Positions 11,673-55,172 of a stretch of DNA of 64,000 nucleotides are shown in pieces (the first letter of the stretch is position 1; the number at the start of each line of letters is the position of its first letter). A model generated the notes under the pieces. That model worked only from the letters and a program-made list of their open reading frames with translations. It ran no database searches and had not been told where the DNA came from. Position numbers and translations under genes: made by a program. The stretch is from positions 268,290-332,289 of the forward strand of contig MU006109.1 in NCBI GenBank assembly GCA_010093705.1, in the 5' to 3' direction. The stretch is from Patellaria atrata CBS 101060 (taxonomy: Eukaryota).

Positions 11673-12051
11673 GCTGGGTAGCTGAAGTAGATGGTATAGA
11701 GTGAGGTCTAGTCTTAGGGAGATAGTGGGAGGGTTTGAACTTTGGGGGGTTTGAGATGGTAGGCTTGCGGATACTGGAATCACTGGATGTGATGGGGGAT
11801 GTTTGCAAAACCCTTTTTTATCTTGTATTCGTGGGAGGGGTTTTGTAGAGCAGTTGATATATCTATTACCATCCCAACAACTGAGTCTAGTTTAGTGGCG
11901 GGGAATTGGACCCTCCGCAGTCTTTCCCCTTGATTCATGATCATAAGGAGGTCGTCTATCAAAAGGGAAGGGTGCTTTCAACCACGTCCCCAGCGTGATT
12001 ATCACCCCTGCTGTTTATAAATCAACAACCTGTGACTACTTTCCATAACCC

Positions 12052-12200
12052 GGGACCTGTGGCCTAGTGGTGGGAATCCCCCACCACACGGAACAGGACA
12101 AGTCACTAACACGTCCTGGGTTCGATCCTGGGCCTCATCGGGGGGCCCAGCAGACTACCACGTTCCCCTTCGGAGGGCGTGGGAACTGTTTTGATTTTTT
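12052..12200 (+). ncRNA. Putative Pol III ncRNA, unit 1: A/B-box head, four hairpins, oligo-T
   Basis: TTTATAAA 12014-21; A-box TGGCCTAGTGG 12060-70; B-box GGTTCGATCC 12119-28; hairpins incl. a C(UUCG)G loop at 12168-73; T4 and T6 at 12189-12200. Confidence 0.6.
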
Positions 12201-12905
12201 GATTTTTTATTATTCTCCTTTTCTTTCTGCTTTTCCTTTTGCTGCTTAGCAGGTCTTCACTCGATTAGATACATGACAGGCATTCAGCGTAGGGCGCACA
12301 CCTACATATAAGTGTAACACGATGTTGAACCTACTACCGTATGCTCAGGGTACAATTCTATTATTAACTCATCTAATTTACAGAGGATCAACTAGTCAAT
12401 TAGAAAAAAGGGCGGGCGTCATAGATGTTGGGTAGGATTTAGCTCGCCAGTCAGCAATTTTAGAGGATGAGGGAAGGCCCATGGTTCAGGCCTCCATAGA
12501 TATAAACAGCAACAGTGTTGCTTGATCAATAAGACTGTGGAATTAGTAAGGCAAAAATATAAAACTGGAAAAGAAGAAGGATGGTGAATCAAGAGGGTCG
12601 GTCTTTATTCGGAGAATTCGCAGTTGTCCTGAACCATTAGTAATCTAAGTCTGGCCGCTTTTAAATCTATCACAGCTTAAAGAGGAAGAAGGTCAATGAG
12701 AGATTGATAAGTAAGTAGCATTGACAAGTCTAATCAGACTTGTTTCATGTATTGCACTTCCATGTGAGAATTCGCTGACCGTTCGGTGGACATGGCTCCT
12801 CCGTTCTAATTGATAATGAAACAAAGTCCCCAGTGAAAGAACCTCTAGAGTGCGTCCAGCTCAAACTCCGGCGCTATGCTCATAATAATCATGATATTTG
12901 GGCTT

Positions 12906-16790: not shown

Positions 16791-18844
<2,054 letters not shown>

Positions 18845-19330
18845 GCACGAGATTTAAGAATATCCGGTATTTTCCTTATGAGGGGGAAGTTATTGTATTA
18901 CATATGTAATGTATATACGCTGTATGACTCTGTTCATCACTACCTCAATGAACCTAAGTACTAAGATACCTTCCCCTTTCTCCACCTATTAGAATTAACA
19001 CATCATACATACGTAAGTTGATTCAAAGTTACGGCTAAGTAGACTATCATACTAAGGAATGTAGGGGATGCTAAGATAAAAGTGGGATAATGATGTGATG
19101 TCGTTGTTCACCTTTCTAACACACTCGAGCTTTATATTGAGCGTCATTTTTGACACTTTTCAAGAGCACAGAGGATAACCCCTTGAAGATTTAAATTCCC
19201 CAACATCTCCTCGCTGTCCGTTACCCCCCCCAACGCGCCCAAAGACCCCTTTCTCCACGCACAATCTTTCACTTAGCACTCGTTTGCTCACCAAAAAGCA
19301 ACCACATAACCCATCCATGTCCACAACGCA

Positions 19331-19623
19331 GCAACAACGGACAACTAGCCTAGCGGTAAGATCAAAGCATAATGCTGCCTGGATAAGGCTCTAGGGTCGA
19401 TTCCCCGTTGTTGCCAGGTACGGAAACAAGACTTTCAAGCCCTCAACGTCAGTTAAGATAACCCTTAGAGACTTACCGTGGAACTAGCCTAGTCGCATAT
19501 ATTCCCGCAAGGGCGGACTAACATATAGGCAAGGACGGCTGACGAAAGGTGCGCGAGACGTGCTAGCAGCGCTGTTAAGCCTCATTGAGCGCGAAAGCTT
19601 AAAGATGTCTAATTTTCTTTTTT
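19331..19623 (+). ncRNA. Putative Pol III ncRNA, unit 2: tRNA-like head, ~190-nt structured trailer, oligo-T
   Basis: A-box TAGCCTAGCGG 19346-56; B-box-like GGGTCGATTCC 19394-404; 10-bp stem 19331-40/19405-14; nested trailer helices; T4/T6 at 19613-23. Confidence 0.6.
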
Positions 19624-19824
19624 CCTTTTTCAGGGAGAGCGGCGAGGTGTTAAAGATGGCTTACTACCTCGTACTCTACGATTAGGCAAGGGGTTACTAT
19701 ACAGACGGAGACTTGCAGTATAATGATACTATCAACTTTGATCTCACGTCAACCTTTGATCGGGTGAATGTAGATTTGAGAGCTAGCATTGTGGTAATAT
19801 TGAAGATTGTGTGATATAAATCGA

Positions 19825-22410
19825 CTACTTCTTCCTTTCCTTCGCCCTCTTTAAACCTCTGATATCCTTCTTTAATCTCGCATCAACCATCTTATACTTT
19901 CCCTTTGTTCCCTTAGGCCTGCCTGAAATACCCCTATTCCCGCCCCTCGCAACGACGACCTTGACCGTCCTCTTCGGCTTCTTCTTCGCAGCTTTAGCCA
20001 TCAGTTTCGCAACGCCATCCGCCTTCTCCCGCTCCGTCATGCCCTCTTCATCTAGCAGCAAGGCGGACTTTTTCTTCAACTTCTCGAGTCTCTGCGCCGC
20101 TTTAAACTTCTTCCTGTCCTTAGCCTCACGCACCTTCTTTATAGGTCGCGCATTTAGAGCCCGGAGTTTTTCTTTGATCGCTGCAGCAGCAGCAGCAGTA
20201 ATGGGACGTTGTGGTTTCGAATGGCGGTTTTCGTCGTCGAGGAACCAGTCGGGAAGACCGTCGACATCGCGGAGGGAGTACTTGTTAAAACCGTCATCGA
20301 GGAGATCGTGTTTAGATTTCTGGCCGGTAGCAATTTGCTGAGCGAGTGTCATAGCTTCGGCAGTGATGATGTCGATATCAGGACGACCATTCTTCATAGG
20401 CTCTGAATCCTTCTCCCATGTCGTTTCGTCCCGTTTGACGACCTCGAAACCACTCTCGTCATCTTCTGAGGAGTCGTCCTCGTGTGTGTCAAGCCGAGGA
20501 CGGAATTCTGTTTTCGATACTTTCTTTAGACGTTCCGGAAGGGTGGTTGACTCGGGTGAATTCGCATTATTTTCAACGTCGATACCGCTATCAGAATCAA
20601 CGTCCCCGTCTAAACCATCTATGCCTTTGAATATGTCCTGATCGAAGAACATTGCTGCTCTTTTGGTGAGACCGTTGGAAACCGTGCCATTATCCTCTAA
20701 TTCGGTAATCAACTTCTTTCCGGGACCCTCTTCTTCGTTTGATGATTCATCGCTTGCGTCATCTTCAACAATGTCCTCATCACTGCTGACCTCCCTATCG
20801 GAGAACCCCACGAATTCTTCATCTTCATGCTCTTTTCGCGCCTTCTTCGCTCGATATTTGGCATCCACTTCTGATTTGCGTTCCTGATACTGCTCATACA
20901 TATTATCTAATTCTCTTTCTAGTAGATCTGCATCCGAATCGCTATCATACTCTTCCTCGCTTGGTTCCTCTTCCTTTTGCTCTTGCACAACTGTATGCAT
21001 TTTTCCTTTTACCACTTTAGATAACACTCCCGCTTTATCGACCGCTTTGAGTTCAAAAATAGCGTCTTCACCCATCGGTCCATTCTGCTCCATACCTATC
21101 TCCATCGGGGTTGTCATGTTCATTTGCATGCGCACAATCTCCTTTTGCTTCCGCTCGTTTTCCTTTCGTCTCTCTTTTTTTTTCTCCTTATTACTCTGAT
21201 CCCGTAAGCGCTGCATTTCTTCCTGTAGTTTCAGCTCTTCATCCATGGACTCAACTTCAGCGACTTCCTCTTCTGCTTCAGCTTCTGCTTCCATTTCCTT
21301 CTTTTTGGAGGGAAAACCGAATACATGTCGAACCTTTAGTCTCCACCTGAGTAGAAGTTTGAAGTCTTTTCTTCCCAACACCTTAAGATCAGCACAGCAA
21401 TCTCGGATTTCTTGCGTTGTCTCTGGTAGCTTGTCAAGTGTGGCGAGCGCGATATCTCCATTCTTGGGCTGTCCGAAACTGAGCTTATTCAAGCTCCCTA
21501 GCATAGCAATAGGATCTGTTGTCTGAATGAACTCGCTTGCAGGTGCTTCTTTGAATTGTGTCCAATCATCCTCCTCATAACCCTGACGTTTTCGTTTCTT
21601 GACTTCTGGGTTGAAAACTTTGGCCTCATTGTTGGGAGTAGGATCTGCTAGTTCTGCAAACACGGATCGAGGGTCAAGGAACTTTGAATCAATCTTCTTA
21701 GGCGCTTTATATCCACGGCAAACCACGAATATCTCGGCTGAGACGTTCCTAGAAGATGGCGGTTTTGTAGCCTCAACCTTCATGAATAGCTGATTGAAAA
21801 CCCATAGTAAGGGATTATAATCCTTCGATCTGAACACCTTTGTGACAAATGTACCGCCAGGCGCTAGAAAATCCGTGGCTAACCGTAACGATTGTAAAAC
21901 CAGCTCTGCTTGAGAGAAAGCATCCTGGACCCAAGCGGTACCAACATTGGGCGCCCCATCATGGAGTACTGTATCCGCTTTCCAAGTCTTCAGATGCTGT
22001 CTGATTGTGGCGCGGCATTTGTCCGTAGTGATATCGCTCTGGAAGGTAATACATCGAGGAATTGGCTTGATAGGTGAAAGATCGACGCCTATAATCAGGC
22101 TGTTCGCAGGCATAACCTCTGCGGCGACTTGACACCATGACTATTCTCATTAGAACAAACTTAGGCTTCTATAAGAGGGAAGAAACATACCCCCGGCGCG
22201 GCGCAAAGGTCTATCAATACCTTGCTCTTTTCCAGAAAGTTGTATTTCTTGTTTAGCTGAATTAATTTGAATGCTGCACGAGCTCTGTAACCCTTCTCTT
22301 TTGCTAACTTGTACCATTTATCGAGACGGCCTTTTCCGTGCTAAGCGACAAATCAGCTACTGTCCTCTGCAGAAAGATATTTCTAAACTCACTTTCTTCT
22401 GGATAGCCAT
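19825..22410 (-). CDS. SPB1: rRNA 2'-O-methyltransferase Spb1 (FtsJ/RrmJ family)
   Basis: MAIQKK | ..[35 protein letters not shown] | [27 protein letters not shown]-terminal [14 protein letters not shown]. Confidence 0.97.
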
Positions 22411-53156: not shown

Positions 53157-54230
53157 CAAAGAGTTATCAGTTTGTCTCCGCTTTAAAGATAGTTTATCGA
53201 GCTTTTTCAAGTGGCTTCGCGTACCCTAATTGATACACGTCCATCCCATTATTTTACAAAATGCATCCCCTTTTTACCAACTAGTTCATGTATCAATGAT
53301 ATCTTCTCGATCATCTCATGGCAATAGCACTTCAATAGTCGCGTCTCGTCTAAACACCGGTTGAGCTGTTAAATATAGGCATATGTCCCTATTTGAAGCA
53401 CTTCGTGACTTCGTGTAGACGCGAAAGGGTCTATCTATACCCTGGCATTTAGTAGAGCGGAGTTAATAGCGTAGCTTACCTTAAACGCTAGGCACTATAA
53501 TGAATGTATAAAACTATTCTCCTTCTTACAGCACTCCCTAGAGGAGCTCTGGTCAGGTCTATTCCCCCGGAGTCATGGATTGCTTCTTATATTACACGGC
53601 TTGTCGTGATACATCCTTAGAAACAAGGTCAAGTATAAGATTCTGATCGAAAAATAGCGATGTCCAATGACCAATGTGCTAAAAAGGAATGTACATATAT
53701 GGAAATGAGAGGATGCACGTCTATCGAAAAGGGTCGTCTGTGAGAACCGGTTGACTATGCTCACAAAGGAGTAAAATAGTAGTATAGGTAGGATCATATG
53801 ATAACTATCGCCGTTTCCTTTCTAGCGAGTCGATAGAAACTTGACCAAAATCTACGGATCTAATAAGTGCAAGATGCAAAAATGAGTGCTTCTACCTTCG
53901 TACAGAAAATAGAAACGTATAAGGCACATCCAACCACATGTATGACTTAAGTCTGTAAAATGACAGGTTCGTCGAAGGGTTAATGATCTCCTTACCCTTG
54001 CTCCAAGCTCGGCAATAGGCGTTCAAATCAGAGATAGAGTTTAGGATCACAGCGTTGCTATCATCGGTGTTCGAGGAACGGGGAACTTCCAAAAAGGGAA
54101 ACGGGCAGCAACTTCTGGCAAAAACACCCAAGTACGGCGGGAGGGAAGGTAAAACGCAGCGGTGGTATCTCGGTGGGCACAACAGACAATACTTTATATA
54201 GTAGACCTCAAGAGAACAACCTTTAATTTT

Positions 54231-54393
54231 GGCGGCATGGCCGAGTGGTTTACGATTTCCTCTGTCCTATTTTCTTCTGTCAATTCCCTATCGGTCAAAT
54301 TTCTAAGTCTTTAGTTCGAGCCCTGCCTCCGCCAGAATATAAAGTTAAATGCGTTCGCCGGGTTAACTTTCCCTCTTCGGAGGTTTTTTTTTT
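54231..54393 (+). ncRNA. Putative Pol III ncRNA, unit 4: tRNA(Ser/Leu)-like ends, pyrimidine-rich core, two trailer hairpins, T10
   Basis: TTTATATA 54193-200; GGCGGCA + A-box TGGCCGAGTGG 54238-48; B-box AGTTCGAGCC 54313-22; CCGCCA 54329-34; AAAGTTAA/TTAACTTT; CCTC-TTCG-GAGG 54372-83; T10. Confidence 0.62.
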
Positions 54394-55172
54394 GCTTTTT
54401 TTTTTTACCTTCCTATTATCTCTTCTTTTTATTTACTTAAGGGATCAGTGTTGTAGATTTTTATCGTATTCTAGAATTAAGCTCAACCACTCGTCGGTGT
54501 AAGGTAGAACTGGAACTACAGTAGTTCAACCTAAGAGCGTCTTATTTGATCATCGCATGTGTACCACACTAACACTTATTTAACGACGCAAGACAACATC
54601 AGAAGATAAAGGTAGCAGTAGGGCAAGCCGGGCTCATAATTCTCACGACTGTTCCATTTGTAAATATTCCGGGTCTAAAAGCTATGTAAGCAACTTAGTA
54701 AATCACCACACAAGCCATGATGTGCCTAATGACAAATTCGCCTTTTGCGATCCTTATTGCGCTTACATTCACCTTTTCGCTCAGACTTACAACGAGAAGA
54801 CAGTAGAAAGCGTGGTTATGCTTCTATTAAATTAGGGAAAACTCCTGAGTTAGATCGATACGATATGCACCTCGGGCTTTGTGACTATACAGAGCACTTT
54901 GAAGTACAAATCGACATGGAAATGACGGTGGTAGGCTATGTTAAGATCAATTGTATGTGGAAAAGGGAATTCAAATCAATATTCCGACAATGGACCCAGG
55001 TAATTGCGAGTCAGGATTCATCTGCTCCTTCACTAAGCGGAGTAAGACAATTCATAGTCGACTGTGACCAGTACATTGTAGAGTGTCAGTATATAAGTAC
55101 CATCTAATCCTCTGGGAATTTCCATTGACTACCCAACCTTCCTGAAATCACCAGTTCTGATTGACCACAACA

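Follow-up and report, generated by a model that had tools for sequence, protein, structure and literature searches.

What is the unit with a tRNA-like head that lies between the convergent MSE1-like and SPB1 genes of the fungal DNA examined here, and does its long trailer amount to a new structured RNA? The question was raised by a preliminary description of the locus, which portrayed a tRNA-like leader fused to a multi-domain RNA with a possible 3' pseudoknot. It concerns one (Unit 2) of three comparable units in the 64-kb stretch of DNA that was analysed as a whole, hereafter the window. We consider in turn the head of Unit 2, its trailer, the T cluster that follows and the relatives of the locus, and ask of each what it would contribute to an RNA polymerase III (Pol III) unit.

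Sequence analysis

Known RNA families were sought with cmscan against Rfam 15, at the gathering score on the 64 kb and at E<=10 on positions 19100-19800 and on the head and the trailer separately. Fold stability is given as z-scores from RNAfold against dinucleotide shuffles. The A and B boxes were scanned for with the consensus that is general knowledge for type-2 Pol III promoters (TRGCNNANNGG for the A box, and the B-box consensus). Loci for comparison came from a metagenome scan with SPB1, which supplied 80 fungal loci at 44-83% amino-acid identity, 658 kb of DNA in all.

Setting of Unit 2

Unit 2 lies inside a 980-bp gap, with the members of a convergent gene pair on its two sides (Table 1). 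These had been named as MSE1 and SPB1, about 1 kb apart, and the Pfam domains bear out both identities. The MSE1-like gene is read from the same strand as Unit 2, and 487 nt separate its stop codon from the head. Nine open reading frames of at least 25 aa overlap the gap, the longest of them 52 aa; a hidden small gene was rejected at that length, as was an intron-like reading of GTAAGA...ACTAAC...TAG, which gives only about 32 codons. Unit 2 sits within a GC-richer island (GC 0.47-0.56 versus 0.33-0.41 in the flanks). We note that the plus-strand tract immediately 5' of the head, 19150-19330, is C-rich, with a GC content of 0.47-0.55 and a strong GC skew (to -0.6), and that neither the rest of the window nor the 80 SPB1 loci yielded similar DNA.

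Table 1. Features of Unit 2 and its flanking genes, in positions of the window
Feature	Position	Strand	Evidence
MSE1-like mitochondrial-type glutamyl-tRNA synthetase gene	16806..18844	+	Pfam tRNA-synt_1c and Anticodon_2, across three ORF pieces
tRNA-like head, 84 nt	19331..19414	+	fold z -2.93 and -2.62; weak tRNA-Sec alignment
Closing (acceptor-like) stem, 5' arm GCAACAACGG, 10 bp, perfect	19331..19340	+	exact reverse complement of 19405-19414
A-box-like motif TAGCCTAGCGG	19346..19356	+	motif scan with the type-2 consensus
B-box-like motif GGGTCGATTCC	19394..19404	+	motif scan with the type-2 consensus
Closing stem, 3' arm CCGTTGTTGC	19405..19414	+	directly after the B box
Trailer, 198 nt between head and T cluster, without a T4 run	19415..19612	+	fold z +0.71 and +0.68
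Proposed long hairpin CGTCAGTT/GGCTGACG, with GCCTA/TAGGC and CCC-GCAA-GGG inside	19447..19544	+	pairs present; z -0.47
Proposed H-type pseudoknot, GCGCT/AGCGC interleaved with TTAAGC/GCTTAA	19569..19602	+	pattern present
Oligo-T cluster T4-C-T6-CC-T5, candidate Pol III terminator	19613..19630	+	T4 at 19613, T6 at 19618, T5 at 19626
SPB1 last exon, convergent flank	19825..22113	-	Pfam FtsJ, DUF3381 and Spb1_C

A promoter-like head

The perfect stem that had been proposed to close the head pairs along its full 10 bp, and its 3' arm, placed as it is after the B box, takes the position of the 3' strand of a tRNA T stem together with the 3' strand of the acceptor stem. The 3' half of the head has the spacing of a canonical tRNA, with the B box followed by 3 nt and a 7-nt acceptor strand. 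The A box begins at head position 16, about 8 nt deeper than in a canonical tRNA, and the B box follows it at 48 nt, counted from start to start (19346, 19394). The B-box-like motif is GGTTCGANTCC minus one T, which leaves the T loop one T short. In order and spacing the two boxes are those of a type-2 Pol III unit, as judged by the general consensus.

Taken alone, a perfect stem of 10 bp over a span of 60-120 nt is no rarity, for the window holds six versus a mean of 4.4 in 30 shuffles. An A box and a B box within a closing stem of 10 bp or more, all placed as in a tRNA, were found together twice in the window, in Units 2 and 3, versus a mean of 0.02 in 100 dinucleotide shuffles, just one of which contained any. 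The fold of the head also beats its shuffles, of which three in 200 and five in 300 were as good for the two z-scores of Table 1, and in its minimum-energy form it makes an extended hairpin instead of a cloverleaf.

The head is not a tRNA: ARAGORN calls no tRNA gene in the 64-kb window, and scans of 19100-19800 and of the head by itself give no RF00005 match at E<=10. The tRNA-Sec model (RF01852) can be aligned to the full length of the head at 11.4 bits (E 7.2), with the D, anticodon and variable arms flagged as non-canonical; the gathering cutoff of this model, whose members have a 9/4 acceptor/T fold and a UCA anticodon arm, is 47, and with 11.4 bits behind it a tRNA-Sec relic was rejected. 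What stands of the tRNA-like leader of the preliminary description is not a tRNA but a Pol III promoter module of the tRNA type, which has an acceptor-like stem and is followed by non-tRNA sequence and then by an oligo-T cluster. A perfect stem and near-consensus boxes around a non-tRNA interior are at odds with uniform decay, and hint at selection for transcription or processing. We consider it somewhat probable that a type-2 promoter (A box and B box) has been kept within the acceptor-like 10-bp stem, and that the tRNA fold has been lost.

The trailer as probable passenger sequence

The strings and complementarities that had been listed for the trailer are all present where they had been placed; their stability, however, is that of shuffled sequence. 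For the trailer as a whole, 151 of 200 and 224 of 300 shuffles fold as well as the real sequence. The arms of the long hairpin (19447-54/19537-44) pair through six Watson-Crick and two G-U pairs, and 58 of 200 shuffles are equally stable. The 3' domain stands at z +1.03 (170 of 200 shuffles as good), the whole of Unit 2 at z -0.02 (91 of 200) and all 12 of 12 sliding 60-nt windows between -0.50 and +1.27, values that leave pseudoknots unscored and that cannot exclude a functional RNA, as certain real RNAs score unremarkably. The proposed pseudoknot can be counted instead: of 1000 trailer shuffles, 477 hold interleaved perfect stems of 5 bp and 6 bp within 60 nt, as do 143 of the 323 tiles of the window. 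Because shuffled sequence yields all of the trailer helices and the pseudoknot, the data lend no support to the multi-domain model with its 3' pseudoknot. These tests strip the positive evidence from the multi-domain fold without excluding a function, and within Unit 2 only the head exceeds chance.

The smaller motifs of the trailer fare no differently. ACTTACC, remarked upon earlier as U1-like, is indeed present at 19471-77, but as a 7-mer it occurs at chance frequency (11 in the window versus about 7.8 expected). The 11-mer AACTAGCCTAG does occur twice, at 19343 and 19482, as had been reported; the repeat is marginal, with 8 of 500 shuffles scoring as high, and the trailer was rejected as a duplicate of the head, since only this 11-mer aligns (score 22). 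Against the remainder of the window, the longest complementary match that the trailer makes is 12 nt versus shuffle means of 11.4-11.6, and no DNA like the trailer is present there.

A known family was likewise not found. Rfam gives no gathering-score match in the 64 kb and none at E<=10 in 19100-19800, and the separate scans of head and trailer returned nothing above noise (12 bits for mir-503, 11 for tRNA-Sec and 15 for ceN63, the last on the trailer versus a cutoff of 65). The cmscan check proposed earlier for RNase P/MRP, SRP, U1 and ribozymes was run and was negative, leaving Unit 2 without a known-family identity. With no Rfam match behind them, hammerhead and HDV-like ribozymes, RNase P/MRP, SRP and U1 were set aside as identities; by eye, there is a CUGACGA...GAAA pair, but without a canonical stem II, and a 6/7 match to the CR-I motif, but at the wrong end of the RNA. 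Neither Rfam nor inspection gave C/D, H/ACA or P4-type motifs in the Unit 2 cargo. Jochl 2008 (PMC2377427) makes no mention of Pol III, of anything tRNA-like, of an A box or a B box, of RNase P or of a leader, and the accessible part of the Breaker-lab work on fungal motifs (PMC5640933) holds nothing like Unit 2.

These results bear most directly on the possibility that Unit 2 is a leader-promoter gene, in which the head would be both promoter and processing handle and RNase Z would free a trailer RNA, about 200 nt long, with a function of its own, for instance as a structured RNP component or a small-RNA precursor. We regard such a gene as rather unlikely. The trailer, its long hairpin and its 3' domain fold at the level of shuffles (z +0.7, -0.5 and +1.0), none of the 12 windows falls below -0.5, the pseudoknot does not exceed chance, the long hairpin has too many interruptions to resemble a Dicer substrate, and the cargo has no Rfam match, no homolog in the 658 kb of fungal SPB1 loci and no complementarity to the window above that of shuffles. 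What speaks for it is the closing stem and the A and B boxes, perfect and intact despite the non-tRNA interior, the clean stretch without T4 runs up to a strong T cluster and the GC island, together with the precedents of Y. lipolytica and S. cerevisiae RPR1 (PMC2566860) and of N. crassa (PMC3547838). Under the reading that we prefer, of a tRNA-gene-derived Pol III-type unit without selected structured cargo, the trailer is most likely passenger sequence, either a SINE-like body or read-through. As its structure is at random level, the locus should count as a new class of structured RNA only with the support of a transcript and of covariation.

The T cluster and a possible transcript

The T cluster is the first run of at least four T residues 3' of the head. 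A downstream oligo-T terminator, as in a type-2 Pol III unit, is thus at hand, though it is not significant alone: because 18% of window positions have a T5 run within 213 nt, the cluster is suggestive only in combination with the head. On the minus strand these T runs read as an A-rich tract, which lies about 200 nt beyond the stop codon of SPB1. Unlike Units 1 and 3, Unit 2 has no TATA-like motif some 30 nt upstream.

If Unit 2 is transcribed in the way that its promoter-like head suggests, TFIIIC would bind at the A and B boxes, and Pol III would start near 19320-19331, read the head and then about 200 nt of sequence that is ordinary and without any special fold, and stop in the T cluster at 19613-19630, for a primary RNA of about 290-300 nt. 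The head stem could permit an RNase P cut at about 19331 and an RNase Z cut at about 19415. The transcription of Unit 2, its processing sites and its origin are matters that we infer from sequence.

Alternatively, the locus might have no Pol III role at all, and be 3'-untranslated or intergenic DNA of MSE1 and SPB1 in which the head is either the inert remnant of an old tRNA or a tRNA-like signal for processing the 3' end of the Pol II transcript of MSE1, of the kind known from MALAT1-mascRNA, where a tRNA-like element serves the 3'-end processing of a transcript. The head is on the MSE1 strand at a short remove from the stop codon, the T cluster is equally an A-rich tract on the SPB1 strand past the stop of that gene, a TATA is absent upstream and a T5 run is so often nearby by chance; yet the joint occurrence of A box, B box and stem is highly non-random and suits a type-2 promoter over a UTR element. 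We know of no fungal precedent for mascRNA-like processing, and hold the absence of any Pol III role to be distinctly unlikely.

Sister units in the window

The A/B-box scan of the window identified three units, all on the plus strand and each with a 3' T run (boxes at 12059/12119, 19346/19394 and 54238/54313). In Units 1 and 3 a TATA-like motif precedes the A box by about 35 nt, and the trailers are short, at about 50-60 nt, with a terminal UUCG-type hairpin right before the T run; Unit 2 has neither. Beyond the boxes, the three heads have little in common (27 of 221 columns invariant).

Unit 1 (12035-12208, plus strand) has its TATA-like motif, the A box TGGCCTAGTGG and the B box GGTTCGATCCT, and its trailer of about 57 nt has a terminal hairpin of the CCCT-TCGG-AGGG type, then T runs. 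The fold of the whole unit has a z of -3.45, with none of 300 shuffles as good. Parts of Unit 1 are matched at 90-95% by several further contigs of the assembly, one of which joins 12076 to 12164, skipping 87 nt; on the strength of these partial matches, Unit 1 is a member of a multi-copy family that has length variants. Unit 3 (54203-54400, plus strand) has a TATA-like motif, the A box TGGCCGAGTGG and, 75 nt on, the B box AGTTCGAGCCC, and the architecture of boxes and stem spans 54226-54338, with a closing stem of 10 bp when G-U is allowed. Its trailer of about 47 nt has two hairpins, the last being CCTC-UUCG-GAGG, followed by a T10 run. In size and layout Unit 3 recalls the RUF70 trailers, of about 70 nt, behind Yarrowia tRNA genes (PMC2566860).

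Relatives, copies and origin

MSE1 was found by tblastn beside SPB1 in none of the 80 loci, and the interval that holds Unit 2 is therefore a lineage-specific junction. This interval (18845-19824) has no blastn match in the 80 loci, the best E being 0.53; nhmmer with Unit 2, its flanks and Units 1 and 3 returned nothing at E<=10 from the 658 kb of loci, nothing like Unit 2 turned up elsewhere in the window with either program, and the A/B-box scan found no unit comparable to Unit 2 downstream of SPB1 in them. That Unit 2 would act as a DNA-level element, a TFIIIC/Pol III-bound roadblock or boundary between MSE1 and SPB1 like the tDNA and ETC sites that have boundary functions, might suit its position in a convergent gap of about 1 kb and the retention of promoter boxes without a recognisable RNA product, but with the MSE1-SPB1 adjacency absent from 80 of 80 other fungal SPB1 loci no conserved arrangement backs such an element, and we consider it very unlikely.

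A tRNA-gene-like site was observed on the minus strand of three of the loci (L021 2875-2945, L022 8610-8680 and L023 7023-7093), about 300 nt downstream of, and convergent with, an SPB1 that is 73% identical. The site has an A box, a B box, a 7-bp stem and a T run 17 nt past the B box, with no tRNA call by ARAGORN; thus a Pol III-type element near the SPB1 3' end recurs in another fungus. ARAGORN gave no tRNA gene in L001-L060, that is, in 60 of the 80 fetched loci.

As in a tRNA-derived SINE, Unit 2 consists of an A/B-box head, an unrelated 198-nt body and a T-rich tail. Target-site duplications, which belong to such elements as well, are lacking: none of at least 6 bp joins 19270-19345 to 19595-19690, though an old insertion could have lost them. 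The two sequencing runs that contain this DNA, both from one sample, are near-identical DNA assemblies and probably the source of the window. On 19207-19940 they show no further contig that is at least 90% like Unit 2, and the depth is that of a single contig, in contrast to Unit 1. A SINE origin is unproven because no second copy at >=90% is present in those contigs. The tails of SINEs are simple sequence, poly A, poly T or of low complexity (PMC8825457).

Interpretation

On balance, the reading towards which we lean is that Unit 2 is a lineage-specific, tRNA-gene-derived Pol III-type unit without selected structured cargo. It has on its side the non-random architecture of the head (two versus 0.02) and the head fold (z -2.9 and -2.6), the canonical spacing of the 3' half, the T cluster, the chance-level trailer and the lack of an Rfam family, as well as the two further tRNA-like units with T runs in the window and the partial paralogs of Unit 1. 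The description of AfuSINE2 (PMC5063351) fits as well. Against it stand the lack of a target-site duplication of at least 6 bp and of a copy at >=90%, the GC island, the missing TATA-like motif and the preservation of the stem and boxes around a non-tRNA interior. This preservation, the GC island and the fungal precedents keep a selected, transcribed unit in play.

More speculatively, the gutted tRNA modules of Units 1, 2 and 3 might be portable cassettes that supply a Pol III promoter and a processing handle to non-tRNA cargo RNAs of various kinds, with Unit 2 giving rise to an RNase Z-released RNA of about 200 nt with a lineage-specific function (e.g., as a small-RNA precursor or an antisense regulator of the SPB1 3' end). 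We put this forward tentatively and as a doubtful extension of the data.

If transcribed, Unit 2 would join the poorly charted non-tRNA Pol III units of filamentous ascomycetes; the examples known to date comprise a small number of leader-promoter genes in yeast, the dicistronic genes of Yarrowia and the milRNA precursors of Neurospora. It could also act as a compact native Pol III promoter-and-processing cassette. The main value of the present result is negative, in that a set of conspicuous trailer helices, complete with a pseudoknot, proved to be what random sequence of like composition provides.

Comparison with known systems

The AfuSINE2 elements of A. fumigatus measure 140-493 bp and occur in low copy; their A and B boxes are degenerate, one region is unrelated to tRNA, and the heads form no cloverleaf (Kanhayuwa & Coutts 2016, PMC5063351). 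Unit 2, at about 300 bp, is within this size range and resembles them in its tRNA-related 5' part with degenerate boxes, its lack of a cloverleaf, its tRNA-unrelated extension, its low copy and its intergenic position in a gene-rich region (PMC5063351). Unlike AfuSINE2, which has target-site duplications of 4-14 bp (PMC5063351), Unit 2 has none of at least 6 bp; it also differs in having no second copy at >=90% and in its tail, which is oligo-T on the transcribed strand.

In the tRNA-5S rRNA genes of Y. lipolytica, as in its tRNA-Trp-RUF70 genes, transcription is driven by the leader tRNA's promoter (Acker et al. 2008, PMC2566860). Unit 2 is like these dicistronic genes in placing a 5' tRNA-module promoter ahead of a promoterless non-tRNA RNA, and the 5' end of the downstream RNA would be expected, as in Yarrowia, from tRNA 3' processing (PMC2566860). 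The Yarrowia leader is, however, a functional tRNA, and the trailers behind it are multi-copy and expressed (PMC2566860), whereas the head of Unit 2 is not a tRNA and the unit is single-copy at >=90% and known from sequence alone.

Closer in the state of the head are the S. cerevisiae genes RPR1, the first 84 nt of which hold a tRNA-like promoter, and SNR52 and ZOD1, which have A and B boxes upstream (PMC2566860). All three share with Unit 2 a degenerate tRNA-like leader with A and B boxes, a non-tRNA product and an oligo-T end (PMC2566860). The S. cerevisiae cargos are known RNAs (the RNase P RNA and a C/D snoRNA; PMC2566860), whereas that of Unit 2 matches no family.

In N. crassa, RNase Z cuts a tRNA-Ala transcript and so liberates milR-4 (Yang et al. 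2013, PMC3547838), and Pol III produces pri-milR-1 at a length of about 170 nt (PMC3547838). Unit 2 differs in that its hairpin is heavily interrupted and not more stable than its shuffles. The likeness is in the setting, a filamentous ascomycete with a putative Pol III unit and a T cluster right after the product (PMC3547838), and, with milR-4 in particular, in a tRNA moiety whose 3' processing would set the 5' end of the downstream RNA (PMC3547838).
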